The notes beneath the pieces are model-generated. The model had not been told where the DNA came from. It did not search any database and saw only the letters and a program-made list of their open reading frames with translations. Source: an uncultured virus (IMG/VR IMGVR_UViG_3300028591_000107) (Duplodnaviria; Heunggongvirae; Uroviricota; Caudoviricetes). Taken from it: DNA of 64,000 nucleotides. The stretch lies in the IMG/VR virus record IMGVR_UViG_3300028591_000107. One strand, 5' to 3'. Positions 1-14,645 of this stretch are shown here, one piece after another; positions within the stretch are counted from its first letter, which is position 1, and each line of letters opens with the position of its first letter. The position numbers and the translations under genes were made by a program.

Positions 1-115
1 GTATCGGTTAATACTTATTTCAATCTACTCCTACGGTATTTTCTCGGCCGAAATTATGAATGTTATTCCAACTTATTAAGTAGTCTTCCAACTTACATCG
101 AAGGCATTCATATTG

Positions 116-187
116 AGGTCCCAATGAGATTCGAACTCATACTACCGGATTACTAAACCGGAGTTCTACCATTATAACTATAAGACC
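116..187 (-). tRNA. tRNA-Thr(AGT), atypical A34
   Basis: Cloverleaf GGTCTTA...TGGGACC; anticodon arm CCGGT-TTAGTAA-TCCGG; T-loop TTCGAAT. Confidence 0.7.
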
Positions 188-340
188 AATTTTGATAAGG
201 AAATTCTGTTATAAAGGCAATTTTTAATCTCCCACCATCAGAGAACCTTTATATATATTTACTGAACTATTTCTATTGAATATGTTGCCATTCAAATCGA
301 AAGGGGTTTTTCACCACTCCTCTTCCATTATCAGTTTTTT

Positions 341-418
341 ATTTTGTTGTATCAATCCCGAAGGTTTGAAACAACGAAAGATTTTCAATATTTTGTTGTA
401 TCAATATGTCAAAGAACT
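341..418 (-). repeat. Operon leader element: boxA-like GTTCTTTGACATATTG plus UUCG hairpin, copy 1
   Basis: Near-identical to 13934-14008. Confidence 0.8.
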
Positions 419-503
419 CGATTCTGAGTTTATTTGAAACTATCATATTCACCAAAGTGAATTGATTATGTCAAAGAACTCAAATGTAATTCGAATTTAT
501 TTC

Positions 504-545
504 GTTTTACATATATAATATAGAAATAAATTTTAAAAATTCAAA
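504..545 (-). promoter_or_regulatory. Recurrent phage promoter-like motif TTTGAA-N-TTTCTATATTATATATGTAAAAC
   Basis: Same motif upstream of many minus-strand units (1307, 14221, 25011, 26722, 36043, 36929, 58339). Confidence 0.7.
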
Positions 546-581
546 TATAATTTAAATTTTTTCTAATTTTTTCTAAATTTG

Positions 582-648
582 TTTCTTTATTTGGATTCGA
601 ACCAAAGACCTCCACTCTTGTGGTGCTCTACCTTTGAGCTATAAAGAA
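582..648 (-). ncRNA. tRNA-like RNA with truncated anticodon arm (CCAC-AAGA-GTGG)
   Basis: Perfect acceptor, D and T arms; 4-bp stem with 4-nt loop replaces the anticodon arm. Confidence 0.7.
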
Positions 649-743
649 AATCCTCATTCATAAAAACTACCATATTCCATAATGAGCATATGTACACTAT
701 CTCAAAACTTCATTACTCTCATTAGTAATCCTGATTCAAAATG

Positions 744-817
744 TGGACCGTAAGGGACTCGAACCCTTCCTATTAGCTTGCAAAGCTAACGTGCTAGCCA
801 ACTATCACTAACAGCCC
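744..817 (-). tRNA. tRNA-Ala(TGC)
   Basis: Cloverleaf, loop TTTGCAA, G3.U70 pair. Confidence 0.95.
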
Positions 818-1306
818 AATTTAATCTTCTGTCCAACTCTGATCTTAATCACCAATTGTTCTCATCTTTCAAGGACTCCAGCAAATTCTGTAAGTTACCC
901 TCAATATGTTAGCTACATCGGTGAGACCAATTCTTTTCAGAAGATAAAAAATCCGGCGATATTCTCTTACATTGTCCTTTATAGTCTGGATTCTTGCTCT
1001 ACATGTAGTTGGTGACTTTACCAAGTATCAAATTCCCATGGAAATTATCAACTCCTCAATGTAATACCTTTTCACTTTTACAAATTGTTTTACTCATTCC
1101 GTAAGAGACTACCGACTGATTACGTATAGGCTGGGATTCGAACCCAAAACTAACAATTTGTGGATTTATATTATAAACTTAACTGGAAATTCGAATTCCA
1201 ATGATTATGTTAGCCTTAACAGATTTCTCCAGGTACTCATTCAATCAGACAAACCTTCTTAAGTTTTATTTTCTTGAGTTCAAAATTTCAAAGAACGTTT
1301 TTATTT

Positions 1307-1349
1307 GTTTTACATATATTATATAGAAATTACTTTTAAAAAATTCAAA
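1307..1349 (-). promoter_or_regulatory. Promoter-like motif of the left tRNA operon, followed by boxA-like GTTCTTTGAAA (1286-1296)
   Basis: Match to the recurrent motif. Confidence 0.7.
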
Positions 1350-1357
1350 CTTTTTAT

Positions 1358-1394
1358 AAAAAAATAAGTGGTTAGATTTTTTCTAACCACTTGT
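1358..1394 (-). terminator. Intrinsic terminator of attenuator 1
   Basis: ACAAGTGGTTAGA-AAAAA-TCTAACCACTTA then U-tract; 5' arm complementary to 1441-1449. Confidence 0.85.
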
Positions 1395-1437
1395 CTTTTA
1401 TTATTATCGTTCTATTTTATTATTTATCCTATATCTA

Positions 1438-1542
1438 TTAACAAGTGGTCATACACATATATATCGCATAATCTTTATTCCAATCATTATTTAATAATGT
1501 TTGGTTAACTGCATATTTATATGTCTTATTTATCACTTGCAT
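1438..1542 (-). CDS. Putative attenuator leader peptide, 34 aa MQVINKTYKYAVNQTLLNNDWNKDYAIYMCMTTC
   Basis: ATG..TAA read manually; its 3' end is complementary to the downstream terminator arm. Confidence 0.75.
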   Translation of the reverse strand: MQVINKTYKYAVNQTLLNNDWNKDYAIYMCMTTC

Positions 1543-1601
1543 TTGTAATTTTAATATTTATAATTTATAATAGTACTTTTTTCTAAAAAAGTTTAATAAT
1601 T

Positions 1602-2570
1602 TTAAGATTTTTTTGCAAATTTTCCTCTTTTTATATTATATTGTTTAAATAAAAATTCATCATGTGCATCTGTTTCAGTATTTTTACCAAAAAATCTACC
1701 TAAATCATATGGATATTTTTTATTATTTTTTAATTTTAAAGTGTCTCCTCTATTTATTTTATACTTAATATATTCATCAATTGTTTTGGAATAAAAATGT
1801 TTTATATAACAAGTATTATATATTTTATTTAATATATAATTATATAAAACACTATTTTGTGAAAAAATTTCATCTGCATACATAAGTTTATAATCAGTAT
1901 TATAAATTAGTCTATTAAATAATACATCATATTTATACAACTGTTTTTTATGAGTTATATTATAATTATTAGTATCATAATTTAAAAAAAGTGTATGTTG
2001 ATGTTTTATTATTGGTTTAAAATTTTCGTAATTATCTATAAAATATTGTTTATTACGAATCATTGATTTAGTCTTATTAGATTTACCATTCTTTATAATA
2101 TAATTATTTTTTTCTATATTCACGGGTTCAGTAAATCTTTCTAAACAACCTCTACCGTCATCAACAATTAATCCATTATCTCCATAATGTCTCCAATTAA
2201 AAGACATATTATCGACATGTTTTGGAAATGTTTCAATAAATTTTTTTAAGTTATCATTAGTTTTAGGAATAACTAAAAATTCATCAATATCTATAATTAA
2301 ATACCAATCATATAAATCTCCATATTTTTGATAAATATCATTATAACAATATGGTTGTATTGGGTGTACATCATTATAATCAAATATTTCTGCTATCCCA
2401 TTTTCTACATAATCTTTAATAATATCATATAATTTAATAGGATAATCACTATCATTATTGTCACATAAATAAAAATGATCCACACCAATTTTTATATGCC
2501 AATCTAACCATTCTTTTATATATCGTTCTTCACATTTGAGACATGCAATTATAGCTACGGTATTATTCAT
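1602..2570 (-). CDS. Glycosyltransferase, GT2/GT92-like
   Basis: KCEERYIKEWLDWH..GVDHFYLCDN and DIDEF (DxD) motifs. Confidence 0.85.
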   Translation of the reverse strand: MNNTVAIIACLKCEERYIKEWLDWHIKIGVDHFYLCDNNDSDYPIKLYDIIKDYVENGIAEIFDYNDVHPIQPYCYNDIYQKYGDLYDWYLIIDIDEFLVIPKTNDNLKKFIETFPKHVDNMSFNWRHYGDNGLIVDDGRGCLERFTEPVNIEKNNYIIKNGKSNKTKSMIRNKQYFIDNYENFKPIIKHQHTLFLNYDTNNYNITHKKQLYKYDVLFNRLIYNTDYKLMYADEIFSQNSVLYNYILNKIYNTCYIKHFYSKTIDEYIKYKINRGDTLKLKNNKKYPYDLGRFFGKNTETDAHDEFLFKQYNIKRGKFAKKS

Positions 2571-3780
2571 TATTATTTAACTTAATATAATCACTAATAT
2601 AATGTTGTATAGAAATGTGTTGTTTTAAATTAAAAATTTTATCAATATTATTTGATATAATAAAATTATATTCATTTTTATATTTATTTTCTATTTCACT
2701 TATAGAACATTTTTTATTAATTATTTCAATAATACCCATATCAACATAAGTGTTTAAATAAGATAATTTTCTATTTTTGTCATTGATGACGATAATTTTA
2801 TTGAAACAATTAAATACATACATTTCTATAGAATTTATAATATCAATATCTAAAATTTTAATATCTGATAAATTAACAATAGCTAAACATTTTATATTTG
2901 GAAAATTCTTTTCATTATATTTTCTAAATATATTTAACTTTGGTATTGTATGTGTATTATATTTACAAAAATTAAAATAATTAAAGTTATATGATTTATA
3001 TCCTAATAATGTAAGTTTTTGAATTTTATTTATACAATATTCTTCTATAGTTTTAAATCTAAAATGTTTTAAATATGCTAAATTAAAATTTATTGTTCTT
3101 ATTTTTGATTCTCTACGTTGTTCAAAAAAATTCAATAATTTACCTTCATTATTTACAACAACTAATTTATGATTATAAAATCCAAAATTTTTATTATTCT
3201 TAAATAACTCATTAGGAATAAATCTATTTGGACAATGGGCCCCACCATGTAAATAATCTATCATTTCTACATGTTTTGCTTTACAATTAATAAAACATTT
3301 TATGTGATGATTTTCAAAAAATGTTAATGGATTTGAATTACATGGATGAGTAAATCTTATGTTTTGTGGAATATCTTTATAAAATAATTCTTCATTGTCA
3401 TCATAATTCATCCAATTAATTTTAATAATATTTACATCATTAAATATAGATCTTGACAAATATTTTTTAACATTATTATCTTTTACTAATGTCAAATACT
3501 CATCTATATCACAAAACAATATCCAATCATATTCATTTCTATTATTATCAAGACAATCTTGAAATGCTTCCATAACCGCAGGACCAACTTTATGTGATTT
3601 CCAAGAAATAAGCTTAACAAAACCAGATTGAATAAAATCCCCTATAACATCATAAGGATCTTCTATTGTATTATGATCATAAATAAAAACTGTATCAAAC
3701 CCTATATTTTTTTGATATTCTACAAATTCTCGTAAATAATTATTTTCTAAACATATAATTGAACAACTGGCTACCTTCAT
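2563..3780 (-). CDS. Glycosyltransferase, GT2/GT92-like, paralog of the previous gene
   Basis: ENNYLREFVEY..IGFD...YDHN, DIDEY, HFRFKTIEEY. Confidence 0.85.
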   Translation of the reverse strand: MKVASCSIICLENNYLREFVEYQKNIGFDTVFIYDHNTIEDPYDVIGDFIQSGFVKLISWKSHKVGPAVMEAFQDCLDNNRNEYDWILFCDIDEYLTLVKDNNVKKYLSRSIFNDVNIIKINWMNYDDNEELFYKDIPQNIRFTHPCNSNPLTFFENHHIKCFINCKAKHVEMIDYLHGGAHCPNRFIPNELFKNNKNFGFYNHKLVVVNNEGKLLNFFEQRRESKIRTINFNLAYLKHFRFKTIEEYCINKIQKLTLLGYKSYNFNYFNFCKYNTHTIPKLNIFRKYNEKNFPNIKCLAIVNLSDIKILDIDIINSIEMYVFNCFNKIIVINDKNRKLSYLNTYVDMGIIEIINKKCSISEIENKYKNEYNFIISNNIDKIFNLKQHISIQHYISDYIKLNNNE

Positions 3781-3849
3781 TATTTAACTATTATTAATAT
3801 ATATTAAAATAGTATTTAATATTTCTATTTTTAAATTAATTAATTAATT

Positions 3850-4662
3850 ATGAATAATATGAATAAAAATGTTTGTTATACATGTATAGTTGGAAATTAT
3901 GATACACTAAAAGAGCCTTTAGTAATATCTGATGATTTTGATTATATATGTTTTACAGATAATAAAAATTTAAAATCAGATAATTGGAATATAAAACCAA
4001 TACCTGAAAATTTATTATCTTTTAATAATGGAAAAATTAATCGTTATATAAAATGGACTCCACACATATTATTTCCAGAATATGAATTTTCTATTTATGT
4101 AGATGGATCATTAACAATACAAAATGATTTATTGGAATTAAAAAATAATTTTTGTAATGATTTAAATATACCAATGTATTTTATTTCTCATAATAAAAGA
4201 AAATGTGTGTATGAAGAATTCTTGGCAAATGCAAGAGGAAAAAAAGAAGATATTACAAAATTATATAATCAAATGCATAAATATTTTGAAGAAGGATTAC
4301 CATTTAATTATTTATTAACACATAATTGTATATTATTTAGATATCATAATAATCCAATTTATATTAATTTTTCAAATGCATTAATGGAAGAAATGAACAA
4401 TACAACATTTCGTGATCAATTATCTTCTCCATATATAATTTGGAAACAAAATATAAAAGAAAATATAAAATTAATTGATACAAAAATTATAAAACAATAT
4501 TTTGATTATGATAATAGTTGGAAACATGATTTGAAATATGTTAAAGAACAAAGTATATTACAAAATGTATTACATAAAATTATCGTAAATAATATATTAG
4601 ATAAATTAGAATTAGAATTATATTTAAATTTATTAAATAAAATGTTTAGGTCTTATATGTAA
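3850..4662 (+). CDS. DUF616/TOD1-MUCI70-like glycosyltransferase
   Basis: YTCIVGNYDTL, DYICFTD, PH.LFPEYE.SIYVDG, RDQLS motifs. Confidence 0.8.
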   Translation: MNNMNKNVCYTCIVGNYDTLKEPLVISDDFDYICFTDNKNLKSDNWNIKPIPENLLSFNNGKINRYIKWTPHILFPEYEFSIYVDGSLTIQNDLLELKNNFCNDLNIPMYFISHNKRKCVYEEFLANARGKKEDITKLYNQMHKYFEEGLPFNYLLTHNCILFRYHNNPIYINFSNALMEEMNNTTFRDQLSSPYIIWKQNIKENIKLIDTKIIKQYFDYDNSWKHDLKYVKEQSILQNVLHKIIVNNILDKLELELYLNLLNKMFRSYM

Positions 4663-4690
4663 AATGGGTATTCATTCGAATACCCATTTA
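4662..4690. terminator. Bidirectional terminator between convergent genes
   Basis: AAATGGGTATTC-ATTC-GAATACCCATTT hairpin. Confidence 0.75.
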
Positions 4691-4695
4691 TATAT

Positions 4696-5901
4696 TTAAT
4701 GTTTTGCAAGTTCTTCTTCAATTTTACTCATCATTTTCTTTACTTTATTAACATATTCTTGAGCATCATTAATCGCTTCCTGTGCTCTTTCATCATTATA
4801 TTTTCTATAAATCTTTGGATTATCAGCCTTATGATCTTTAGCCGTTTTTTCATCTTTATCTGCTTGATATTTTGATTTTACAGATTGATAAAATGATTTA
4901 TATGAACTTGATACATAACTCATGAGTTCACCCATATCAAAATATATATCAAGATATTCAGGTTTAGACATTATCTTTTCATATAACTTAATGACTTCTT
5001 CATTTGTTTTTTTAATCTCTTCAAAAAAATCTTTACTATTATCTTGTAATTTTTTGGCACGCATTGCATCTGCTAATACTTTATATCTAGAACGTTGTAA
5101 CTTAAGTAAATTATCTAAAGATTTCTTATCATAATTAATTACACCCTTTTGTGATTCGGTGCGGGTATCAATTAAATCTTTATAGTCTTTAATCATATCA
5201 TTAGTAATTTCTAATGCATAAACCTTTATTCCTGGAACTTCGGCAAGTTCATTAAGCATATCGATAACTTCTCCTGCCTTAAGTGGACGTGTTTTATATG
5301 AATAATAATCCTTAAGATATTCTTTAAGTTCACTATTAATTTTATATTTAGTGCCATCACCATATTTTGCCATACGTTCTGATTTAAAGTAATACATTCC
5401 ATCAGATTTTGCATCTTCTCCATATGCTTTAATAAAATTAATTATATTACCATCTGGATCCGTAATAATATAATTTGCATTAGCATCAGCCTTTCCATAT
5501 GTTTTTTTAATAAGTTTTATTAATGCCTTATCATTTGGTACATATTCTTTAAAATCATTATCAGTAATTTCAGACCATTTTAAACCTTGTATACCTTTTT
5601 TATCAGGACCATAACGTAGAGATTTTACTTTAGGACCAAATATAGAAGCAAAATTAGTTAAGTTAGGATCATGCTTAGATCCATCAGAATATGGATATCT
5701 TTCATCTTGATCCTTAGCTCTTTCTATTTTTTTAATGTTGTTATCCTTTTCAATATCATAAATTTTCTGTGCTAATTTTTGAACTAATGTAGATTTAAAT
5801 GATTCATTAACTATTTCATCACTAACAATTATATTAATCATTTCATTAATGACTAATACATCATAATTATAATCATTTAAATATTCTAATAATTGTTTCA
5901 T
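4696..5901 (-). CDS. Hypothetical protein, probably virion-internal
   Basis: 401-aa ORF; N-terminal MKQLLEYL..INE..VNES resembles prohead-protease processed leaders. Confidence 0.6.
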   Translation of the reverse strand: MKQLLEYLNDYNYDVLVINEMINIIVSDEIVNESFKSTLVQKLAQKIYDIEKDNNIKKIERAKDQDERYPYSDGSKHDPNLTNFASIFGPKVKSLRYGPDKKGIQGLKWSEITDNDFKEYVPNDKALIKLIKKTYGKADANANYIITDPDGNIINFIKAYGEDAKSDGMYYFKSERMAKYGDGTKYKINSELKEYLKDYYSYKTRPLKAGEVIDMLNELAEVPGIKVYALEITNDMIKDYKDLIDTRTESQKGVINYDKKSLDNLLKLQRSRYKVLADAMRAKKLQDNSKDFFEEIKKTNEEVIKLYEKIMSKPEYLDIYFDMGELMSYVSSSYKSFYQSVKSKYQADKDEKTAKDHKADNPKIYRKYNDERAQEAINDAQEYVNKVKKMMSKIEEELAKH

Positions 5902-5937
5902 TTATGTATTATTATATTTATTTAAAAATAATAAATA

Positions 5938-5971
5938 AAAAAGAAGATTAGCAAATTAACTAATCTTCTTT
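5938..5971 (-). terminator. Terminator at the end of the large tRNA operon
   Basis: AAAGAAGATTAG...CTAATCTTCTTT hairpin with T-tract. Confidence 0.8.
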
Positions 5972-5976
5972 ATAAG

Positions 5977-6056
5977 TACCTCCCCTGGGATTCGAACCCA
6001 GACCCAATTAAGGACCGCTTTTGAGACGGCTGCGTAGACCATTCCGCCAGAGAGGC
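5977..6056 (-). tRNA. tRNA-Leu(CAA)
   Basis: Cloverleaf with variable arm, loop CTCAAAA. Confidence 0.9.
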
Positions 6057-6080
6057 ATATCATATTGATACAACAAATAT

Positions 6081-6329
6081 TTAATTTATCTTATACAATT
6101 CTTCCTTTTCTATTGCCCTTCTAATCCATCTCATCAGAATTATACATTTATCATAATGAGTTAAAAATATAGCAGTTTCACCAACATCATGTTTATCGGA
6201 CAAATCTATATCAAGTGAATAAATTGTACTATCTTCTACTGTTATATGATAAACAGCTATTCCTCCGGATTTTATACAATCAAGTTCGGCAGAACCTTTT
6301 ACAATAGTTTTTAAATCATGAGTAATCAT
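6081..6329 (-). CDS. Small hypothetical protein inside the tRNA array
   Basis: 82-aa ORF with AT-rich initiation region. Confidence 0.7.
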   Translation of the reverse strand: MITHDLKTIVKGSAELDCIKSGGIAVYHITVEDSTIYSLDIDLSDKHDVGETAIFLTHYDKCIILMRWIRRAIEKEELYKIN

Positions 6330-6357
6330 ATTTTATTTATTGAATTTTATTTATATG

Positions 6358-6451
6358 ATGTGTAGTAGGCTATCGAAACCTACCCGTAAGGATGTATAGT
6401 ACCCTACTTTCCACGAATGTTTATAAACTATACTTATAAACACATACACAT
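6358..6451 (-). ncRNA. tRNA-like element (acceptor stem and T-like arm, non-canonical middle)
   Basis: ATGTGTA/TACACAT stem, GTAGG-TTTCGATAG-CCTAC arm. Confidence 0.45.
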
Positions 6452-6496
6452 TCTCATTTAGTTTTTCGTTTCGGCAAAAACTAACAAAAACCTCAG

Positions 6497-6577
6497 TGCG
6501 TCTGGTGGGACTCGAACCCACACCTCCGAAGAGCTAGATCCTTAGTCTAGTGCGTATCCCAATTCCGCCACAGACGC
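6497..6577 (-). tRNA. tRNA-Leu(AAG), A34
   Basis: Anticodon arm CTAGA-CTAAGGA-TCTAG, type II variable arm. Confidence 0.9.
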
Positions 6578-6714
6578 ATTATATATTTCCTATACAAGAG
6601 ACCCTTGGATTAATGAGTAACGATAACCACTCATCTTGTAGTCATTGGAAATATTTTTCTAACAGTTTTATTTTAACCGGATAAACTTGTTATTAAAACG
6701 CGGTATCGTATTTG

Positions 6715-6788
6715 TTGGGCTGGTCAGAGTCAAACTGACGATCCCTTGCGTGTAAAACAAGTGCTTTAAATCACTAAGCTACAGCCCA
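6715..6788 (-). tRNA. tRNA-Val(TAC)
   Basis: CTTGT-TTTACAC-GCAAG. Confidence 0.85.
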
Positions 6789-6867
6789 ATAAATGACGGT
6801 TCCATTATGTAAACGGCGATGCGCATCGCTGTGCCTATGCTGAAAGTCACCGACAACCAAAAGTACG

Positions 6868-6939
6868 TCGGGATAACGGGACTCGAACCCATAACTTCTG
6901 CTTCAGAGGCATTTGTGTTCACCATTACACCATATCCCA
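6868..6939 (-). tRNA. tRNA-Gln(CTG)
   Basis: TGGGATA acceptor, loop CTCTGAA. Confidence 0.8.
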
Positions 6940-7149
6940 ATAAAACCAGTATTTTGAGACTGGTAACTCACAATCCTTGCTTTTTCTGGGGAATTGCTCG
7001 TGTTTTTGGACCGCTAACTTTTTAATTCAAAGGACATCCGTTCCTCCACGATACAAGGCCTCATCATCCTTTATTGACACATGTAGAATGCCATTCTACT
7101 TCTCTTCGTATTGTGCCCGATACTAGTCGGTGCGTTATTCCAACAGGTG

Positions 7150-7236
7150 TCGGGATAGAGAGATTCGAACTCTCACGTATCATTTTCAACGCCAGATTCT
7201 AAGTCTGGTGCGTCTGTCCATTTTCGCCATATCCCG
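7150..7236 (-). tRNA. tRNA-Leu(TAG)
   Basis: CCAGA-CTTAGAA-TCTGG, long variable arm. Confidence 0.9.
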
Positions 7237-7268
7237 ATTTGCCAAAATGATGGAAAGGTAGACATCGA

Positions 7269-7327
7269 TGGTAACGTTGGAATCGAACCAAATAGCTAGC
7301 ATACATGTACCATTTACTGCGTTACCA
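7269..7327 (-). ncRNA. Mini tRNA-like RNA lacking an anticodon arm
   Basis: GGTAACG/CGTTACC acceptor, GTA-AATGG-TAC D-like arm, TTGG-TTCGATT-CCAA T arm. Confidence 0.6.
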
Positions 7328-7334
7328 ATGTAAA

Positions 7335-7403
7335 AACCTCCCATAGGAATTTAACCTACATCTCTTGGTAAAATCCAAGGCTCTAACGTTGAGCTAAAGA
7401 GGT
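7335..7403 (-). ncRNA. tRNA-like RNA with 6-nt anticodon loop and degenerate T loop
   Basis: GCTC/GAGC D stem; CTTGG-ATTTTA-CCAAG. Confidence 0.55.
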
Positions 7404-7405
7404 AG

Positions 7406-7493
7406 CGGAGAGCACCGGAGTCGAACCGGAGCCGAAATTACCGACCGAAGCGGGTTAGCAATCCGTCCTTATCACCGTCAAAGTTTACTCTCC
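7406..7493 (-). tRNA. tRNA-Ser(GCT)
   Basis: GGAGAG acceptor, G73, long variable arm, loop TTGCTAA. Confidence 0.85.
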
Positions 7494-7580
7494 AATAAAT
7501 TCTTTAATTTGTTTAATAACTTCTTTTGTATTATTACAACAATATTCCCAATCTATTCTTAATTTTGTCCAATTTTGTTT
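7485..7580 (-). pseudogene. C-terminal remnant of a DUF559/Vsr-like endonuclease
   Basis: Frame KQNWTKLRIDWEYCCNNTKEVIKQIKEFIGE* resembles the C-terminus of 10615..11547; no start codon. Confidence 0.5.
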
Positions 7581-7622
7581 AAAATAAAAAATAAGGCTAT
7601 TAACCTTATTTTTAATGTTAAT

Positions 7623-8099
7623 TTAAAATTTTATTTTGTTAGTATACTTAAATAAATATTCTAATGAATCAGTATATAAATCTTCATACTTTTCATCATA
7701 AGAAGATTTTTTAATTGATAATGTTATGAATTCATCTTGATTAATTAATTCTATTTGACAAACTGGTTTATTATCATTTTCAAAATTAATATCTATTCCA
7801 TTATATCTTTTCCTACCAATATTTGTTGTTAATGAATTCAATTTTATTATTAACTTATTACCTAATATATTTTTATTGATTTCTTGTTCACAATCTTTAA
7901 AATATTTTAGTATTGATATTGATTTTTGAATTTCTGGATATTTTTTAAATTGATTAAATTTGTAATAATACTTACCAAAATCAATTTTATCATATTCAAA
8001 ATCATATTTACTTAAAAAGGAATATATTGGATAATTATTAATTTTTGTTTTACTATTAATTTTTAATTTTTCATTTATAAAATCAATTATTTTTTGCAT
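7623..8099 (-). CDS. Hypothetical protein with MxxIxDFINEKLKI N-terminus
   Basis: 158-aa ORF; terminator-like hairpin near 7590-7612. Confidence 0.65.
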   Translation of the reverse strand: MQKIIDFINEKLKINSKTKINNYPIYSFLSKYDFEYDKIDFGKYYYKFNQFKKYPEIQKSISILKYFKDCEQEINKNILGNKLIIKLNSLTTNIGRKRYNGIDINFENDNKPVCQIELINQDEFITLSIKKSSYDEKYEDLYTDSLEYLFKYTNKIKF

Positions 8100-8342
8100 A
8101 TTAAATTATTTTATTTTTTTGTCTGTTATAATTAAAAATAAATATTTATTACAAACCAAATATAAAAATATCTTTACATTCCACTATCCTGTACAACTGT
8201 CAATCAAGCGTTGCCTACAGTAACTTCTCCAAATCATGTTTATATGAACACTATTGTTATGTCCTTTAAGATATTTAAATACATTGTTTAACTGGTACAA
8301 TGTATAAAACCTCGATAGAATCTTACTATAAGTAAGATTTCG

Positions 8343-8414
8343 GGGGTTATGCCGGAGTCGAACCAGCCTAGTGAGAACCACAACCTCATGTCCTACCGAT
8401 GAACGAATAGCCCC
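8343..8414 (-). tRNA. tRNA-His(GTG)
   Basis: G-1/C73, loop TTGTGGT. Confidence 0.85.
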
Positions 8415-8609
8415 ATATAAGTCAATTCTCTAAAAGAGGTGTTGCCAAAACTTAAATTGACAAATAGATTTCTCACCCGAGACCTCCGGAGTTTTCCTTG
8501 ATATCATTGCTGACCGTACTTCCACCTATCTCTTTGGGATAACCCACTACTCCAATTGGTGTTCCTTAAAATCTATCAATATTAGTTTTAATATTAGTTT
8601 TGCTCTTAG

Positions 8610-8694
8610 GGTGTTAGATGGGATTCGAACCCACATTGAGATAAACTCGATGATTCACAGTCACCTGCCTGTAACCAATTCGGCTACTAACACC
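8610..8694 (-). tRNA. tRNA-His(GTG) with long variable arm
   Basis: G-1/C73; GGTGA-CTGTGAA-TCATC; variable arm GAG-TTTAT-CTC. Confidence 0.8.
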
Positions 8695-8886
8695 ATATAA
8701 AAACAGGTCAACCATTTTCCCTGTTATGTCCCGATATGAACACATGTAAACATTGTATTAACAGTGTTACTAAGTTTTTCACCATAATCAAGGCTTATAG
8801 CTGCACAAGCAACGAGGACGGGATTTCAACTTTAACCTCTAAAATGGCCTACACGGATTTTAAGAGGCTGTAGGGAATCCTCATTG

Positions 8887-9031
8887 AGTGGACAGTTGGA
8901 TTTGAACCAACATTTCCGGCTTGGAATGCAATAATTTGAAGTACCTCTCAACTACAACAATCTTCCGATGTAAAAGCGTTAAAAGTTAATAAAAAATTTT
9001 TAACGGCGTACTACCCTTATACGATATCCAC
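8887..9031 (-). ncRNA. tRNA-Gly-like body with a Y-RNA-like stem inserted in the anticodon arm
   Basis: GTGGATA/TGTCCAC acceptor, intact D and T arms; insert carries TGTTGTAGTTGAGAGGTACTTC. Confidence 0.7.
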
Positions 9032-9145
9032 ATAAATGATAGAAACCACTTAAACTATCATATATAATTACTTACAGTTAATTATACATTTTTTATATCG
9101 ACCTGCTGTAAGAACCTTTATCGATACTGGACTATTTTTATTGTG

Positions 9146-9217
9146 AGCGGCGTACCAGATTCGAACTGGCTCCTTAAGAATGGCGATCTCATATGCAACC
9201 ATTAACACCTACACCGC
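9146..9217 (-). tRNA. tRNA-Gly(GCC), C33
   Basis: GCG acceptor, U73, loop TCGCCAT. Confidence 0.85.
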
Positions 9218-9249
9218 ATATTCGGTTTTACTTAGATCCGAAAACTTAG

Positions 9250-9380
9250 TAGCGCGGGTTGGACTCGAACCAACATAAGATTGTTTGACATACAATTGTG
9301 TAAACCGAAGTAACTCTTATCTACAGCATTCATTAAGAAGCAACAACGAAAAAAGTATTAAAATATTTCACCACCGCGCT
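9250..9380 (-). ncRNA. tRNA-like/Y-RNA-like hybrid
   Basis: AGCGCGG/CCGCGCT acceptor, T arm, motif TGCTGTAGATAAGAGTTACTTC. Confidence 0.65.
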
Positions 9381-9457
9381 GGTAGGGATAACGGGATTCG
9401 AACCCGTATCTTTGCCTTGAGGGGGCAACCACCTGAACCTATTAGTATGATATCCCC
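9380..9457 (-). tRNA. tRNA-Glu(CTC), C33, encoded CCA
   Basis: TTGCC-CCCTCAA-GGCAA. Confidence 0.85.
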
Positions 9458-9470
9458 ATATAAATTTATG

Positions 9471-9542
9471 AGCGGGATAACGGAATCGAACCGTCATATC
9501 CAGCTTGGAAGGCTGGCATAATAACCATTATACTAATCCCGC
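9471..9542 (-). tRNA. tRNA-Gly(TCC)
   Basis: CCAGC-CTTCCAA-GCTGG. Confidence 0.95.
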
Positions 9543-9654
9543 GGATGGAGGTACCTTTATCACTATCAGAATCCCTATTGTTTTACTTCATGACTATTAG
9601 TTTATCACAAGCTTTATTGATACTTAATAACCATTGCAAGTGAACCTCCATATG

Positions 9655-9731
9655 TACCGCCGGTCAGAATCGAACTGACATGAAACCAATTAACCTTTCA
9701 ACGCCTTATGAGAGCGAGGGTATACGGCGGC
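9655..9731 (-). ncRNA. D-armless tRNA-like RNA, CAT anticodon, long variable arm
   Basis: GCCGCCG acceptor, TATACCCT linker, CGCT-CTCATAA-GGCG, variable arm with AATTGG loop, T arm. Confidence 0.65.
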
Positions 9732-9739
9732 ATAATAAG

Positions 9740-9813
9740 TTGGGATGATAGGACTTGAACCTACGACCTCCATCTTATCAGGATGGCATTCTAACCAACT
9801 GAAATACATCCCA
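9740..9813 (-). tRNA. tRNA-Ile(GAT)
   Basis: CCATC-CTGATAA-GATGG. Confidence 0.95.
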
Positions 9814-9819
9814 ATATAT

Positions 9820-9943
9820 AAAATATGTTAACCAATTACACCAATGCCAGATTTTACACTTTCAGATTAATATTCTAGAACTATTAACCATCAATCATAT
9901 AGATTTCGATACTGGCATACAGGGCTCGAACCTATATCATTTT
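9820..9943 (-). ncRNA. Circularly permuted tRNA-like element with a large insert at the acceptor end
   Basis: Order T arm, ATGCCAG, insert, CTGGCAT, D arm. Confidence 0.6.
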
Positions 9944-9946
9944 AAG

Positions 9947-10021
9947 TTGGGGAACCGAGACTCGAACTCGGAACTTCAGCTTCAAAGGCTGACGTGTTAA
10001 CCAATTACACAGCATTCCCCA
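9947..10021 (-). tRNA. tRNA-Gln(TTG)
   Basis: TCAGC-CTTTGAA-GCTGA. Confidence 0.85.
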
Positions 10022-10067
10022 ATAAAATGGTGATTCATCACATTACGGTTACAACCACCAAAAAACC

Positions 10068-10160
10068 GAAATCATGTAACTATCGGTAAAAGTATTTTGT
10101 CTTATGGATCTGAGTGAAAATCGGATTTGAAGTAACTCTTACCTTTCAACAAGAGGATTC
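10068..10160 (-). ncRNA. Y-RNA-like stem RNA
   Basis: TGTTGAAAGGTAAGAGTTACTTC paired with ACTTTTACCGATAGTTACA. Confidence 0.6.
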
Positions 10161-10161
10161 G

Positions 10162-10235
10162 TAGGGAGGCCCAGATTCGAACTGGGATTGGAAACGTATC
10201 AGATTTCTAGCCTCAACCATTTAGCTGATCTCCCC
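10162..10235 (-). tRNA. tRNA with GAT anticodon (Ile), atypical body
   Basis: GAAAT-CTGATAC-GTTTC. Confidence 0.7.
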
Positions 10236-10453
10236 ATATTGGTGTTTAAGGATAACACCAAAACCCATTTTAGTGTTTTAATCAACTAAAGTTCTGTTCC
10301 ATCTCGCTCAATGTATTTAAGCTAAAGCCTGTGGAAGGTCTTTCTTAATGCGCACTCGATTATGTCACCTTCAGCAAGTGTTATGTGATTTATTTCCGGA
10401 TTGACCCATAACGCTAATGCCAACTTTACCCATCTATCTGGGATGCGAACTTG

Positions 10454-10529
10454 TAGGGATAATGGGAATCGAACCCGTATTTCCACCTTGAAAGGGTGAC
10501 TACCTGAACCAGTTAGTAATGATATCCCC
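10454..10529 (-). tRNA. tRNA-Glu(TTC)
   Basis: TCACC-CTTTCAA-GGTGG; body similar to 9380-9457. Confidence 0.9.
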
Positions 10530-10537
10530 ATAAAATT

Positions 10538-10614
10538 ATTCCTGTAACAATCGAATAAAGTATATTAAATAAAACCAAAAATTATTGAAGTAACTCTATT
10601 CTACAACAAGGAAT
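10538..10614 (-). ncRNA. Y-RNA-like stem RNA
   Basis: TGTTGTAGAATAGAGTTACTTC paired with ACTTTATTCGATTGTTACA. Confidence 0.6.
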
Positions 10615-11547
10615 TTATTTTTTATAATATTCAAGAAATTTATTTATTTTTTCTTGCATTAATTTCTTTCCATTTTCTGAATTAATTTCATTCCATGGTA
10701 TTCTATAAACTTCTATTCCTTTAGATTTTATATATTTATCTCTAATTTTGTCTGATTCTTTTCGATCTTCATATAAATGTTGTTTACCATCTATTTCTAG
10801 ATCAATTTTTCTATTATTTATTTCAATATAAAAATCCAAAAAATATCTTTCACCATTATGTAAATCCCCATATTCTAATAAATATTCTCTAATATAAGGA
10901 ATTGAATTATTATCTAAAACTTGTTTCCAAAATTTTTCAGCATAACTTATAATATTTCTAGATTTCCATCCTTGAAATGTTCCATTTTGGATTTCCTTTT
11001 GTCTTAATAATGACATTTGTTTAGATATTGATTTTTGTCTACATTCATCAGAACAATATTTTTGAAATTTATTACTTTCAAATTCTTTATTACAATATTT
11101 ACATATACATTTTCGAACACCATAAATATATTTTCCATATTGATTAGCTAATTTATATTTATGTTGTTTAATACCTTCAACAAATGTATTAGATATTTTT
11201 TGTTTTGTTTCTTCGGATCTTAAACCTTTTTTCTTATTTCCTAATGCTGAACCACAAGATTGATTACAACATTTTGCAAATCTTTTTTCAAATGGTAATT
11301 TCTTTCCACAATATTCACAATATTTAGGATTTAAATCATAATCTCTTTTTTGAATTTCTAACCAATGATTAGATAAATTCTTTTTAGAAATTTGTTCTTT
11401 AGAATCAATTCCTATTTGTGAAAAATATAAAAGAATATCTTTATCTATAAATCCTCCATTTTGATTAGTACGAATATTTAACTTTTTACAAATTTCTGAT
11501 TTTGACTTAGAATAATCATAAATATTTTGAATTTCCTCTTTAGTCAT
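10615..11547 (-). CDS. Putative free-standing homing endonuclease (DUF559/Vsr-like C-terminus, Zn fingers, NUMOD3-like repeat)
   Basis: CxxC motifs, RSEETKQKIS, YFLDF...LEIDGKQH...D..RD...VYRIPW. Confidence 0.8.
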   Translation of the reverse strand: MTKEEIQNIYDYSKSKSEICKKLNIRTNQNGGFIDKDILLYFSQIGIDSKEQISKKNLSNHWLEIQKRDYDLNPKYCEYCGKKLPFEKRFAKCCNQSCGSALGNKKKGLRSEETKQKISNTFVEGIKQHKYKLANQYGKYIYGVRKCICKYCNKEFESNKFQKYCSDECRQKSISKQMSLLRQKEIQNGTFQGWKSRNIISYAEKFWKQVLDNNSIPYIREYLLEYGDLHNGERYFLDFYIEINNRKIDLEIDGKQHLYEDRKESDKIRDKYIKSKGIEVYRIPWNEINSENGKKLMQEKINKFLEYYKK

Positions 11548-11622
11548 TTTAATTATTATATATTTAATTAAAAATAGTAAAAATTTGTCAAAAAATTCAA
11601 ATTCGAACTAACAATTTTATAG

Positions 11623-11695
11623 TCGGGAATGTTGGATTTGAACCACTCCTCATCACCCCAAATGACGTATGCTACCTGTTTACACTACATTCCCG
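11623..11695 (-). tRNA. tRNA-Pro(TGG) with 8-bp acceptor and 4-bp T stem
   Basis: CGGGAATG/CATTCCCG; loop TTTGGGG. Confidence 0.75.
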
Positions 11696-11702
11696 ATTAT
11701 TG

Positions 11703-11775
11703 TATGGGTAGCCGGACTCGAACCGACAACAGCGTGCTTCCAATGCACGTCGTCTACCTATTGACGTATGCCCAT
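11703..11775 (-). tRNA. Atypical tRNA with TGG anticodon (Pro?)
   Basis: CGTGC-ATTGGAA-GCACG; A1-U72, A32, A37. Confidence 0.6.
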
Positions 11776-11786
11776 ATATTATATTG

Positions 11787-11859
11787 TGGAGCGGGTGTGA
11801 ATCGAACACACATTGCCGGATTTTCAGTCCGGTGCATTGACCAACTCTGCCACCGCTCC
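11787..11859 (-). tRNA. tRNA-Phe(GAA)
   Basis: CCGGA-CTGAAAA-TCCGG. Confidence 0.9.
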
Positions 11860-12013
11860 AAATATACCTTGAACATCCCATGTATCTGAACTCTGGTATC
11901 ACCTATTCTCTCACCGTGGCCTTAGGGTCTTGATTTCGGAGTTTTGAAAGGTTCTCAAGTTTTTGTTACTCATAAGAGCAGTCCGGACACCTTCCCAAAC
12001 GAGGACATGCATG

Positions 12014-12086
12014 TGGACCGGAGTGGATTCGAACCACTGACACCCAGATCTTCAATCTGGTGCTCTACCAACTGAGCTACCGGTCA
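12014..12086 (-). tRNA. tRNA-Phe(GAA)
   Basis: CCAGA-TTGAAGA-TCTGG. Confidence 0.9.
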
Positions 12087-12157
12087 ATTTGTGAGTCTTA
12101 CCTCACAGTAGTTAAATCTTTTTATCATTATATGAAGACCTAACAGAAACACTTGCG

Positions 12158-12229
12158 AGGGCCCATGCGGAGTCGAACCGCACTACCAGGTTTTGCAGAC
12201 CCGTACATAAACCGCCCTGACCTAGACCC
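12158..12229 (-). tRNA. tRNA-Cys(GCA)
   Basis: CGGGT-CTGCAAA-ACCTG, U73. Confidence 0.9.
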
Positions 12230-12362
12230 ATTATTATAGATATATGATAATGATATTGTTACCATACGCTGGCAGGATTCGAACCAAACCAGCTCGCGGA
12301 CTCGATCCACTCTTCACATTACCAAGGAAACCATTCCTTATGGGATATATCTATTATAAGTT

Positions 12363-12510
12363 AATTTACGGAATAATCGAATAAAGCTTAATATTAGCCG
12401 TGTTTACCAATTTCACCACCATGGTACATAATGACCATGGGCCGGATTCGAACCGACAAGGATAACATCCAGCCATTTCTTGAAGTATCTCTATTCTTCA
12501 CCAGCAAATT
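12363..12510 (-). ncRNA. YrlA-like Y RNA (terminal stem plus permuted tRNA module)
   Basis: 5' stem strand, T arm GTCGG-TTCGAAT-CCGGC, acceptor-like hairpin CCATGGT/ACCATGG, D arm, 3' stem strand. Confidence 0.75.
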
Positions 12511-12512
12511 TG

Positions 12513-12603
12513 CGGAGATGGCCGGATTCGAACCGACACACCGTTTTACCGATTACTACCTGTTTTCAAGACAGGGCCCTTGCGCAATTAGGGTTACATC
12601 TCC
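12513..12603 (-). tRNA. tRNA-Ser(TGA)
   Basis: CCTGT-CTTGAAA-ACAGG, long variable arm, G73. Confidence 0.9.
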
Positions 12604-12613
12604 AATTATGTAT

Positions 12614-13351
12614 TTAAATATTATCATATAAAATTTCCCAAAATTTGTCTCCATATTTAGATGTAACATAATCAAGATAATATTTTACATCTTTATAATA
12701 TAAAACTTTTATATCTGGATTTTGTAATTCTTTTTGTTTCCACTGTTTACTTGAATATCCTTTAATTTCAATTATACCATCATCTGTTATAAAATCAGGT
12801 ATGGATATATGTTCTTCATTATTAAAAATATATTTTCTATGTTCTTTACATCGTGATATATTTAAACCATGTTCTTTATAATAACATACAAATGCTAATT
12901 CCCAAGAACTATCACAAAATATATTTTTATACCAACCTTGTTTACCTATACCAGAACCTTTACGATATCCTCCGACTAATGGATTTTTTTTCATTGTTTC
13001 GGATATTTTTTTTCTACGTTCATCTTCCTTTTCAGAAGTGGATGCAATACCTTTTGCTTTACCTTTTAATGAATTTGATATTTTTTCTTTATATTCATTA
13101 TCTAAACCAAGTTTCCATCCATCTTTAATATAATTATCTAAATCATCTCTTAAAATAAATTTTCGTTTACCATCTTTATGAATAAAAGTTCGATTTAAAG
13201 ACCATGTATTAGGATGACCTTTATAATTTATTTTAATCTTTTGTGGATTTTCTTTACATCTACATTCATGTTGTTTTAAAGAATTTAATGACATATATTC
13301 TTTTCCACAATATTTACAATAACACTGCTGTTTTTTATTAAAATTATTCAT
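12614..13351 (-). CDS. Putative PD-(D/E)xK homing endonuclease with Zn finger and NUMOD3-like repeats
   Basis: CKYCGK, RRKKISETMK, DSSWEL, PDF...IIEIKG. Confidence 0.8.
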   Translation of the reverse strand: MNNFNKKQQCYCKYCGKEYMSLNSLKQHECRCKENPQKIKINYKGHPNTWSLNRTFIHKDGKRKFILRDDLDNYIKDGWKLGLDNEYKEKISNSLKGKAKGIASTSEKEDERRKKISETMKKNPLVGGYRKGSGIGKQGWYKNIFCDSSWELAFVCYYKEHGLNISRCKEHRKYIFNNEEHISIPDFITDDGIIEIKGYSSKQWKQKELQNPDIKVLYYKDVKYYLDYVTSKYGDKFWEILYDNI

Positions 13352-13425
13352 ATATTATAATATAGTACTTTATAATTAATAATAATAATTTTTAATAAAA
13401 TCAAGACAAGCACTATTACCATTTG

Positions 13426-13512
13426 CGGAGAGATAGGGACTCGAACCCTAAAACCGTTATTAGCGATCTGCCAATTTTCAAGATTGGTTCCTCATCCAGC
13501 CGGATCCTCTCC
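13426..13512 (-). tRNA. tRNA-Ser(TGA)
   Basis: CCAAT-CTTGAAA-ATTGG, long variable arm. Confidence 0.85.
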
Positions 13513-13516
13513 GAAT

Positions 13517-13630
13517 AGATTCCGTAGGATTACAATCGTCCACTCTGCCACCGCTCAAAGAACGAAGGGGATTCGAACCCCTGGCCTTCCTAAAGATTTC
13601 TCTTTCAAGAAATAGGCATCCATAGAATCT
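13517..13630 (-). ncRNA. Circularly permuted tRNA-elbow RNA
   Basis: Closing stem AGATTC/GAATCT; T arm AGGGG-TTCGAAT-CCCCT, hairpin TCGTTC-TTT-GAGCGG, D arm. Confidence 0.7.
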
Positions 13631-13933
13631 TTATTTAAAAAATGTAGGCGGGCTTCTCACCACTTAGTTGCGTCTCATCCATTACTGGAGCGTCCTTCTT
13701 GTTTCTATATTTCACAATATAGATTTTCTAGACGACTACAAATTATGTCTCATTCTACAGTGATTGTGTTCTGTCTTTACACCCACGTTCATACTTGATA
13801 AATCGACAAATTTTATCTTTCTTACTTGCGACCGGAGTTTGGTTACTCCGCGGTAATCTTACTCACAACTTAATGTCGAGCAGTGATCCTTAATTCCCGC
13901 TTTGGAAAACTTCCTCAATTTGTAGAGAAATAT

Positions 13934-14008
13934 ATTTGTTGTATCAATCCCGAAGGTTTGAAATAACAAAATTTTTTAATATTTGTTGTATCAATATGTC
14001 AAAGAACT
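13934..14008 (-). repeat. Operon leader element: boxA-like plus UUCG hairpin, copy 2
   Basis: Near-identical to 341-418. Confidence 0.8.
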
Positions 14009-14033
14009 ATCAATTTTAGAAATTGAGAAAAAT

Positions 14034-14109: not shown

Positions 14110-14113
14110 TTCG

Positions 14114-14187: not shown

Positions 14188-14195
14188 ATTTAATA

Positions 14196-14262
14196 TTTTA
14201 AAGAACACTTTTATTTTATGTTTTACATATATTATATAGAAATCAATTTATAAAAATTCAAA
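14196..14262 (-). promoter_or_regulatory. Promoter-like motif plus boxA-like GTTCTTTAAAA
   Basis: Same layout as 1286-1349. Confidence 0.7.
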
Positions 14263-14282
14263 CTTTTTTTAAATTTTTTCAT

Positions 14283-14320
14283 AAAAAAATCTCCAAAACT
14301 TTTGTAAGCTCTGGAGATTT
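14283..14320 (-). terminator. Intrinsic terminator of attenuator 2
   Basis: AAATCTCCAGAGCTT-ACAA-AAGTTTTGGAGATTT then U-tract; 5' arm complementary to 14356-14364. Confidence 0.85.
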
Positions 14321-14343
14321 ACATATATGATTATACTATATAA

Positions 14344-14466
14344 TTACACTTCCATATCTCCAGAATATTCGCACATAGGTTCTTGAAAAAGACCGAACAA
14401 GCCACAAGGTTCTCCTGAAAAAGAAGAACTACCAAGAATAATAATATGTGAGCTAAATTGTGTCAT
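14344..14466 (-). CDS. Putative attenuator leader peptide, 40 aa MTQFSSHIIILGSSSFSGEPCGLFGLFQEPMCEYSGDMEV
   Basis: ATG..TAA read manually; composition mirrors the downstream tRNA set. Confidence 0.8.
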   Translation of the reverse strand: MTQFSSHIIILGSSSFSGEPCGLFGLFQEPMCEYSGDMEV

Positions 14467-14645
14467 TTTTTCTGAAGTTTTATTGTTTATTTAATTTATA
14501 ATAGTATTTTTTTCTAAAAAAGTTTAATTTTTTATTAATTTTTTTATAAAATATTTTAATGATATATCTTATATATAGATAATAAGATGTTATTTTTAAA
14601 TAATATAATTATTATATAGTAACTAAATATATAAATTTCAAATAA

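Follow-up and report, generated by a model that had tools for sequence, protein, structure and literature searches.

A probable leader-peptide attenuator ahead of a tRNA operon in an uncultured Caudoviricetes phage

Leader-peptide attenuators are known from enterobacteria, where multivalent ones regulate ilvGMEDA/ilvBN and thr, and others precede trp, his, leu, and pheA. In these systems a short open reading frame (ORF) rich in the regulatory codons is followed by RNA segments capable of 1:2, 2:3, and 3:4 pairings, the last of which is an intrinsic terminator; a ribosome at the end of the ORF masks the antiterminator strand, and several amino acids can be sensed. The same set of parts, with the 1:2 pairing and the masking as predicted features, is found ahead of a block of tRNA genes on the minus strand of a 64,000-nucleotide stretch of DNA from an uncultured Caudoviricetes virus (IMG/VR record IMGVR_UViG_3300028591_000107), referred to below as the window. 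We consider this locus to be probably a ribosome-mediated (leader-peptide) transcription attenuator placed before a phage tRNA operon and exerting feedback control on tRNA supply, such that the phage probably makes more of the downstream tRNAs only when ribosomes run short of them. The elements, their conservation, the alternative pairings, and the match between codons and tRNAs can all be seen in the DNA, and from them we infer translation of the ORF, the roles of the promoter-like motifs, the timing, and the direction of control.

The locus differs from the enterobacterial attenuators in what it would control, which is tRNA genes and not biosynthetic enzymes, and in what it samples, which is about ten amino acids at the codon level in place of runs of one to three. 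Its phage setting, its long 2:3 loop, the promoter-like motif standing before the target, and the lack of a matching Rfam leader family set it further apart. The pheST attenuator of Escherichia coli is alike in being a case of leader-peptide attenuation of a component of the translation apparatus, with feedback on decoding capacity, but its target is a protein enzyme and a single amino acid is sensed, whereas for the phage leader the product and the sensed molecule would both be tRNAs. T-box RNAs (RF00230) likewise respond to the state of tRNAs, switching between an antiterminator and a terminator ahead of genes related to translation; they bind one uncharged tRNA directly and without translation, whereas one phage leader would cover many tRNA species. 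A cmscan of positions 1-16000 against Rfam (E<=1) gave, besides members of the tRNA clan, weak below-threshold matches elsewhere in that region and none at the leaders, whether to the Trp, His, Thr, Leu, or Phe leaders or to the T-box. A full-text literature search returned no paper in which tRNA genes, phage or cellular, are described as under leader-peptide attenuation; it left subscription journals largely uncovered, so absence from print is unproven. The accessible part of PMC2965389 contains no occurrence of "tRNA gene(s)," "tRNA operon," or "phage," and that of a report on the Lak megaphages (PMC6784885) none of "attenuat," "leader," or "terminator." The type of switch is known; what appears to be new is the tRNA-gene target, the matching of many codons, the block-wise arrangement, and the phage setting.

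ARAGORN found 21 tRNA genes in the window, every one on the minus strand, and Rfam adds several weaker tRNA-like genes. They form two blocks, a "right" block running from 14187 down to 5976 and a "left" block running from about 1260 to the window end. Five related phages, on contigs of 158 to 474 kb, were located by pattern scans. The relatives that figure most in the comparisons below are L151 (a 254.6-kb contig, the same one as L115 and L116), L150 (a 167-kb contig, with L149 and L148 alike), L146 (a 474-kb contig), and G001 (a 158-kb viral contig with homologues of ten window ORFs at 27 to 95% identity). The left leader locus consists of the following features:

1561..1596, minus strand: upstream motif P1 (TTAAAC, 18 nt with dyad symmetry, TATTATAAATTA), a candidate promoter for the leader transcript
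1438..1542, minus strand: leader ORF of 34 codons plus TAA, MQVINKTYKYAVNQTLLNNDWNKDYAIYMCMTTC, with homologous ORFs in L151 and L150
1534..1540, minus strand: segment 1, GCAAGTG, overlapping the start codon and able to pair with segment 2
1441..1449, minus strand: segment 2, the antiterminator strand ACCACTTGT, formed by the last three sense codons and the exact complement of 1386-1394
1386..1394, minus strand: segment 3, ACAAGTGGT, covering the 5' arm of the terminator hairpin
1366..1392, minus strand: terminator hairpin of 11 bp from the terminator scan, followed by a T run at about 1357-1365
1307..1348, minus strand: P2, a phage promoter-like motif (TTGAAT, 17 nt, TATAAT, then ATATGTAAAAC)
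1288..1296, minus strand: GTTCTTTGA, a boxA-like word heading the tRNA operon
1..1287, minus strand: visible part of the left tRNA operon, which is cut by the window end

An earlier note on this DNA had described this leader from the letters alone, and its elements are all present on the minus strand at the positions listed. The 34-codon ORF ahead of the left tRNA operon has the residues that the note gave; Phe, Ser, Gly, Glu, Pro, and His are absent from it, Leu is encoded by TTA (twice), and Ile by ATA (twice). The antiterminator ACCACTTGT (1441-1449) is the exact reverse complement of ACAAGTGGT (1386-1394), as noted. The upstream motif said to be shared by the two window leaders extends over 36 nt (1561-1596 and 14492-14527), of which 35 are identical, with 2 matches in the window versus 0 expected from 100 shuffles. 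Downstream of the terminator the note had placed a promoter motif and a boxA; both sequences are there, but the names "promoter" and "boxA" are labels given by resemblance.

A sister locus with the same layout, all of it on the minus strand, precedes the right operon:

14198..14527, minus strand: sister locus of the right operon
14492-14527, minus strand: sister P1
14344-14466, minus strand: sister leader ORF, MTQFSSHIIILGSSSFSGEPCGLFGLFQEPMCEYSGDMEV
14356-14364, minus strand: sister segment 2, TCTGGAGAT
14310-14318, minus strand: sister segment 3, ATCTCCAGA
14287-14320, minus strand: sister terminator
14220-14261, minus strand: sister P2
14198-14206, minus strand: sister boxA-like word

The two window leaders are unrelated in sequence and share their layout, as the earlier note had pointed out, and this layout recurs at eight loci in five phages: two each in the window, L150, and L146, and one each in L151 and G001. 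The order common to all eight is a small ORF, an antiterminator segment near the ORF end, a terminator, a promoter-like motif, and tRNAs. Three unrelated leader families can be distinguished, one for the left operon, one for the right operon, and one for a cluster containing Arg tRNAs only. Left-family leaders occur in the window, L151, and L150, with a more diverged leader in the same place in L146; right-family leaders occur in the window and L150; and the Arg leaders of G001 and L146 each head an Arg-only tRNA cluster. The locus L147 is almost identical to the window's right locus, and L153, on a 435-kb contig and close to L150, represents a ninth leader locus. The 40-aa sister leader peptide occurs as an identical copy on 4 contigs of the protein collection, and a protein search with it found nothing beyond itself.

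Translation of the leader ORFs is plausible from the way in which homologues differ. The L151 and L150 homologues of the left leader ORF share identical and synonymous codons with it, and the right leaders of the window and L150 have 15 identical codons, 6 synonymous differences, and 12 non-synonymous ones. Shine-Dalgarno sequences are generally absent from this phage's genes, so that their absence before the leaders is normal and uninformative.

The pairing between ORF tail and terminator was tested by taking the best duplex of the terminator 5' arm (with loop) against the upstream 110 to 175 nt, with the dinucleotide-shuffled upstream part as the null. For the left leader of the window this duplex has an energy of -17.1 kcal/mol (z -6.9), and 0 of 500 dinucleotide shuffles were as good. 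All eight leader terminators have such an upstream pairing (-10.1 to -24.9 kcal/mol; z -2.0 to -6.9, p<=0.04), five of them at p<=0.004. As a control, 44 other perfect-stem terminators from the same sequences, including five terminator-plus-P2 junctions before protein genes, gave a median z of +0.29, with none at p<=0.02 and 3 at p<=0.045. The position of the pairing segment is also regular: in six of the eight leaders its 3' end precedes the stop-codon end by 0 to 18 nt, while in one of the remaining two it starts at the stop codon and in the other, the left leader of L146 (L146_L1), it ends 36 nt upstream. Masking by a ribosome at the ORF end would fit the position of segment 2 over the last three sense codons, position being the basis for this.

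The energies of the competing structures are close. Folded as they stand before segment 4 (the 3' arm of the terminator) is made, all 8 of 8 leaders have the 5' arm paired to the ORF tail in their minimum-free-energy structure, and across these leaders the antiterminator folds range from -13.4 to -25.1 kcal/mol versus -13.6 to -18.8 kcal/mol for the terminators. In the left leader of the window the antiterminator formed before segment 4 is transcribed comes to -13.4 kcal/mol and the terminator hairpin to -13.6 kcal/mol. In the fold of the whole region 1350-1560 (z -5.8 versus shuffles), the ORF tail is paired with the start-codon region and the terminator hairpin is present. Pairing of the start region with segment 2 recurs in the minimum-free-energy folds of both window leaders and of relatives; judging from these folds, segment 1 may serve as a protector or pause hairpin.

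The core of the antiterminator is kept at the level of RNA. The heptamer CCACTTG is invariant in the left leaders of the window, L151, and L150, where it is read in different frames (ACC ACT TGT, CCA CTT GCA, and GAC CAC TTG CAT) and encodes T-T-C, P-L-A, and D-H-L-H, respectively, and the closing pair next to it changes from T-A to C-G among the three. That the motif is kept while the frame changes indicates that selection there acts on the RNA and not on the peptide. In an alignment of the three sequences the terminator has 33 of 33 cells paired and two compensatory pairs, a result equalled by 49 of 500 shuffles.

The second line of evidence is the match between leader codons and downstream tRNAs, scored from ARAGORN anticodons with wobble rules and with the codon usage of each contig's long ORFs as background. 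The right operon of the window (21 tRNAs, 14187 to 5976) reads 32 of the 39 codons of the right leader (p=1e-7; 29 of 39 and p=9e-6 with default ARAGORN calls only), while the left operons read only 8 to 10 of the 39. For the left leader, 4 of 33 codons are read by the right operon, where 41% would be expected (P of so few 3e-4), and the two window leaders differ in this respect with a Fisher p of 3e-9. The left operons of three relatives read 24 to 30 of these 33 codons (p=2e-4 to 5e-3), and upstream of segment 2 the relatives' left-operon tRNAs read 28 of 29, the window's own left operon being cut by the window end. Within relatives, the L151 leader has 31 of 36 codons read by its own operon (p=6e-4) and the right leader of L150 has 27 of 33 (p=8e-6). 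The earlier note's proposal that the tRNA set is divided between separately sensed operons is supported, in that leaders match the tRNAs downstream of them and not those of the other operon.

This match is confined to the part of the leader where an attenuator predicts it. Pooled over six left and right leaders, 142 of 163 codons match upstream of segment 2 versus 21 of 48 from segment 2 on (Fisher p=4e-9). The Arg leaders (AGA CGA AGA, or RRR) carry Arg at 4 of 22 and 3 of 13 codons where 3-4% would be expected (p=0.005 and 0.01), and the clusters after them consist of 5 Arg tRNAs in G001 and 4 in L146 and nothing else. Their Arg codons precede the pairing segment by about 12 nt or more, so that a ribosome stalled there would just leave that segment free. 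In G001 a gene of about 90 aa (27850-28130, plus strand) follows the promoter-like motif and precedes the five Arg tRNAs, and would therefore share their control.

The left operon was expected, from the codons of its leader, to contain Asn, Lys, Tyr, Asp, Trp, Met, Thr, Leu(TAA), and Ile2(CAT) tRNAs and few for Phe, Ser, Gly, Glu, Pro, or His. The visible tRNAs are as the earlier note had them, with a tRNA-like gene (582-648) in addition, and the operon has an internal copy of P2:

743-817, minus strand: tRNA-Ala(tgc), ARAGORN
504-545, minus strand: internal P2 of the left operon, a long copy of P2
115-187, minus strand: tRNA-Thr(agt), ARAGORN

The last 1350 nt of the window, from the terminator to its end, are colinear with L150, L151, and L146 (9185-10426 of the last, at 78 to 87% identity), which allows the content of the left operon to be read in relatives. 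Default ARAGORN calls there amount to 25 tRNAs in L151, 28 in L150 (cut by the locus end), and 21 in L146:

Leu(taa): L151 2, L150 2, L146 2
Thr: L151 2, L150 4, L146 3
Ala: L151 2, L150 2, L146 2
Asn: L151 3, L150 4, L146 1
Asp: L151 3, L150 3, L146 2
Lys: L151 5, L150 6, L146 5
Met (CAT): L151 2, L150 3, L146 3
Val: L151 1, L150 1, L146 1
Gln(ttg): L151 1, L150 1, L146 2
Trp: L151 2, L150 1, L146 0
Tyr: L151 1, L150 0, L146 0
Ile(tat): L151 1, L150 0, L146 0
Leu(aag): L151 0, L150 1, L146 0

With these default calls, none of the 74 left-operon tRNAs of the three relatives is for Phe, Ser, Gly, Glu, Pro, or His; a relaxed threshold adds one weak call each for Gly(acc), Glu(ctc), and Leu(tag), as well as Ile(tat) in a second relative. 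The expected Asn, Lys, Asp, Thr, Met, and Leu(taa) tRNAs are found, Trp in two relatives and Tyr in one. The Ile2(CAT) expected for ATA did not fare as well: Ile(tat) reads ATA in one relative, and an Ile2 with CAT is not demonstrable, although one of the several CAT tRNAs could be Ile2. Exact-word scans for the DNA to the left of position 1 matched neither viral nor metagenome contigs; the prediction on left-operon content holds in the relatives, on which it was tested.

Several other explanations must be weighed against an attenuator. The small ORFs could be ordinary small phage genes that close a transcription unit, with P2 alone driving the tRNAs and the match in composition not regulatory. 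Terminator-plus-P2 junctions do precede protein genes as well, some of the peptides are conserved at the amino-acid level (e.g., GSSFSGEPCGL and MQQV..TYK), and the 40-aa peptide of the sister leader (leader 2) is identical on its 4 contigs, all of which would be natural for ordinary genes. What such genes leave unexplained is an antiterminator complementarity found at 8 of 8 leaders and at 0 of 44 control terminators with p<=0.02, a pairing motif kept through three frames while the residues change, and three unrelated peptide families that each mirror their own tRNAs, and only upstream of the pairing segment. We regard this explanation as unlikely.

A leader might also be translated and sense decoding speed but have another output, either a trans-acting leader RNA or peptide or interference with P2, and not read-through into the tRNAs. 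The position of P2 downstream of the terminator would suit this, and there is precedent in trpL of Sinorhizobium, where trans roles have been reported for the attenuator-derived RNA and the leader peptide (PMC6614838 and PMC7298713). On the other hand, the gene block just downstream is the simplest target of a conditional terminator, and the Arg leader of L146 is flanked directly by a tRNA and the Arg cluster and has no upstream motif of its own. Such an output in place of read-through seems to us to have a small chance of being correct.

The pairings 1:2, 2:3, and 3:4 exist at the level of RNA and could in principle form a ribosome-independent switch, in which a tRNA or protein binds the leader RNA in the manner of a T-box or TRAP and the ORF is incidental. 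The Rfam scan of 1-16000 found no T-box or other cis-regulatory family at E<=1, a single specifier cannot account for leaders that match about ten amino acids, and both the synonymous changes and the restriction of the codon match to one zone point to decoding, which makes a switch of this kind highly unlikely. That AT-rich intergenic DNA yielded both the ORF and the complementarity by chance, for which the commonness of short ORFs at 25% G+C might speak (119 ORFs of at least 30 aa in the first 20 kb), is contradicted by the shuffle and control-terminator tests, by conservation in five phages, and by the codon statistics, and is already extremely unlikely.

A number of observations weigh against the attenuator that we prefer. 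The eight leaders include homologues that are not independent, so that the independent evidence consists of three families and not eight loci. Covariation in the antiterminator is thin: the three-sequence alignment has all 27 of 27 cells paired and a single compensatory pair, a score that 161 of 500 shuffles match. About 35 to 50 nt separate segments 2 and 3, which makes for a long loop. The weakest leader, L146_L1, has a 6-bp pairing that ends 36 nt before the stop codon and a codon match of 18 of 34 (p=0.4), and the left leader of L150 (L150_L1), whose operon is cut by the locus end, matches at 24 of 36 codons (p=0.06). The choice of wobble rules changes the figures: the right leader falls to 27 of 39 under strict rules, and to 22 of 39 if the tRNAs are also limited to default calls. 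Both window leaders have conserved Cys codons, but a Cys tRNA was not found in the right operon of the window; a homologue of the Cys tRNA of L150 was sought in the window and not found. The 12-mer of P1 shows no enrichment in the window (17 found versus 20 expected). Finally, a terminator followed by P2 is found generally where one transcription unit of these phages gives way to the next, and since P2 stands between the terminator and the tRNAs, the latter need not depend on read-through, which would be one of two inputs at most.

The leader-peptide attenuator would operate as follows. A transcript starting upstream, probably at 1561-1596, would carry the 34-codon ORF, almost all of whose codons are ones that the downstream tRNAs read. 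When decoding is quick, the ribosome would reach the stop codon and cover segment 2 (1441-1449), the hairpin 1366-1392 would form, and transcription would end before the tRNAs. When charged tRNAs are scarce, the ribosome would stall earlier, leaving segment 2 to pair with 1386-1394; the terminator would then not form, and transcription would read through into the tRNA operon. In a leader that is not translated, segment 1 would hold segment 2, giving termination by default. The outcome would be negative feedback on tRNA supply, exerted separately on blocks of tRNA genes that each have a leader of their own: the left and right blocks and, in relatives, one of Arg tRNAs. Beyond the terminator, P2 probably drives transcription that is independent of the attenuator, perhaps early in infection. 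We suggest, without evidence, that the attenuator and P2 act at different times of infection.

P1 (1561-1596) is taken here as a putative promoter. Its hexamers and their spacing are kept in L151, where the spacer holds a different dyad. In the 18-nt spacer (1573-1590 and 14504-14521) the dyad reads TTTTTTAGAAAAAA in the window and CACTTTCAAAAAAGTG in L151, with symmetry kept and sequence changed; its role may be that of an operator or of a small hairpin. P2 has long copies at 1307-1348, 504-545, and 14220-14261, and of its 23-nt core the window has 8 copies, all on the minus strand, versus 0.04 expected. The related contig G001 has 18 P2-like motifs, with protein genes among those preceded. 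The boxA-like word, GTTCTTTRA in its general form, occurs 14 times in the window versus 2.1 expected, 6 of these being within the tRNA blocks on the minus strand, and the 28 nt that start at the copy in the left locus (1288-1296) are identical in L151. We take the word GTTCTTTGA to be similar to boxA, the NusB/NusE site that heads stable-RNA operons.

Stop codons and suppressor tRNAs offer a further observation on the leaders. Only two of them end in TAG, those of L150 (oriented 9007-9041) and L146 (oriented 5037-5082), and in both the next in-frame stop, a TAA, ends shortly before the 5' arm of the terminator (4 nt in L150, 0 nt in L146). If TAG were suppressed in these leaders, the ribosome would sit on the terminator arm, and from these two cases amber suppression could be linked to read-through. 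A tRNA with a CTA anticodon (amber suppressor) closes the left tRNA block in relatives (L116 4233-4306, minus strand; also L149, L151, and L146), which suggests recoding of TAG in this phage group. The window ORFs read well with the standard code in the part examined.

The tRNA blocks contain other unusual elements. The tRNA-like gene at 582-648 (minus strand), which only Rfam reports and scores as a full-length tRNA (54.8 bits), has 12 nt in place of the 17-nt anticodon arm, and ARAGORN assigns a 2-nt anticodon to a tRNA at 7335-7403 (minus strand), an oddity also seen in relatives (L150 oriented ~6366, L153 oriented ~17229). With the anticodon arm shortened in this way, such genes may encode decoys or tRNA-like RNAs that do not decode. 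Some 330 nt (820-1170, minus strand) separating the operon head from tRNA-Ala, and holding a T-arm-like GGGTTCGAATCCC, are conserved in L146, L150, and L151. Rfam assigns 820-1170 to no family, apart from a very weak match to a tmRNA 3' end, and folds of 1168-1264 and 820-1170 are no better than those of shuffles; the stretch could be an intron-bearing or permuted stable RNA. A repeated element, GAGTTCTTTGACATATTGATACAACAA... followed by TTCAAACCTTCGGGATTGATACAACAA, lies within both tRNA blocks (409-480 and 13938-14007, minus strand) and also in relatives, and may be a processing or antitermination signal. Genes for HNH and intron-type endonucleases are embedded in the right block (10615-11547 and 12614-13351, minus strand).

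The window as a whole has a G+C content of 25% and tightly packed small genes. A PHROGs scan covered 32 of its proteins, and replication and recombination genes of phage type include those for a RecA/UvsX-like recombinase, SbcCD-like nuclease subunits, an NAD-dependent ligase, and homing endonucleases inside the tRNA region. Megablast of window positions 1-6000 against the phage collection gave no match, and that collection contains no near relation of the window's phage. The best phage match of the RecA is from a Chryseobacterium phage (62%), and tblastn with a neighbouring protein of 1299 aa has a single phage match, a weak one from a Tenacibaculum phage; these matches are weak hints of a Bacteroidota host. 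Among the pattern scans, that for the 15-nt tail motif matched 95 loci, of which 1 (G001) is from a relative and the remainder chance, that for P1 matched 29 loci, 1 of them from a relative, and that for P2 plus boxA matched nothing in the genome contigs. Six RNA runs contain 0.05 to 0.17 of the sampled words. In the accessible part of PMC6784885 the Lak megaphages are described as having 25.9% G+C, genomes of about 541 kb, 31 to 33 tRNAs, tRNA introns, and a CTA suppressor. The window's phage group is like them in low G+C, huge size, a suppressor tRNA, and odd tRNAs, a likeness by description.

What large phages do with the dozens of tRNA genes that they carry, and why they carry them, is an open question. 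The leaders described here might, as a doubtful but conceivable answer, be an on-demand counter-measure: host defences that cut or deplete tRNAs, or a mismatch between the tRNAs of the host and a phage of 25% G+C, would slow one set of codons, and only the matching block would be boosted, the blocks (Lys/Asn/Thr/Asp and others, Phe/Ser/Gly/Glu/Pro/His and others, and Arg alone) then being sets of tRNAs that fail together. The small ORF whose tail complements the arm of the next terminator, ahead of tRNA genes, provides a signature by which regulated tRNA blocks may be recognized in uncultured megaphages. If the attenuator operates as proposed, leader-peptide attenuation would extend from amino-acid biosynthesis and one synthetase operon to tRNA genes, and the phage would be measuring decoding capacity and correcting a shortage by feedback, block by block.

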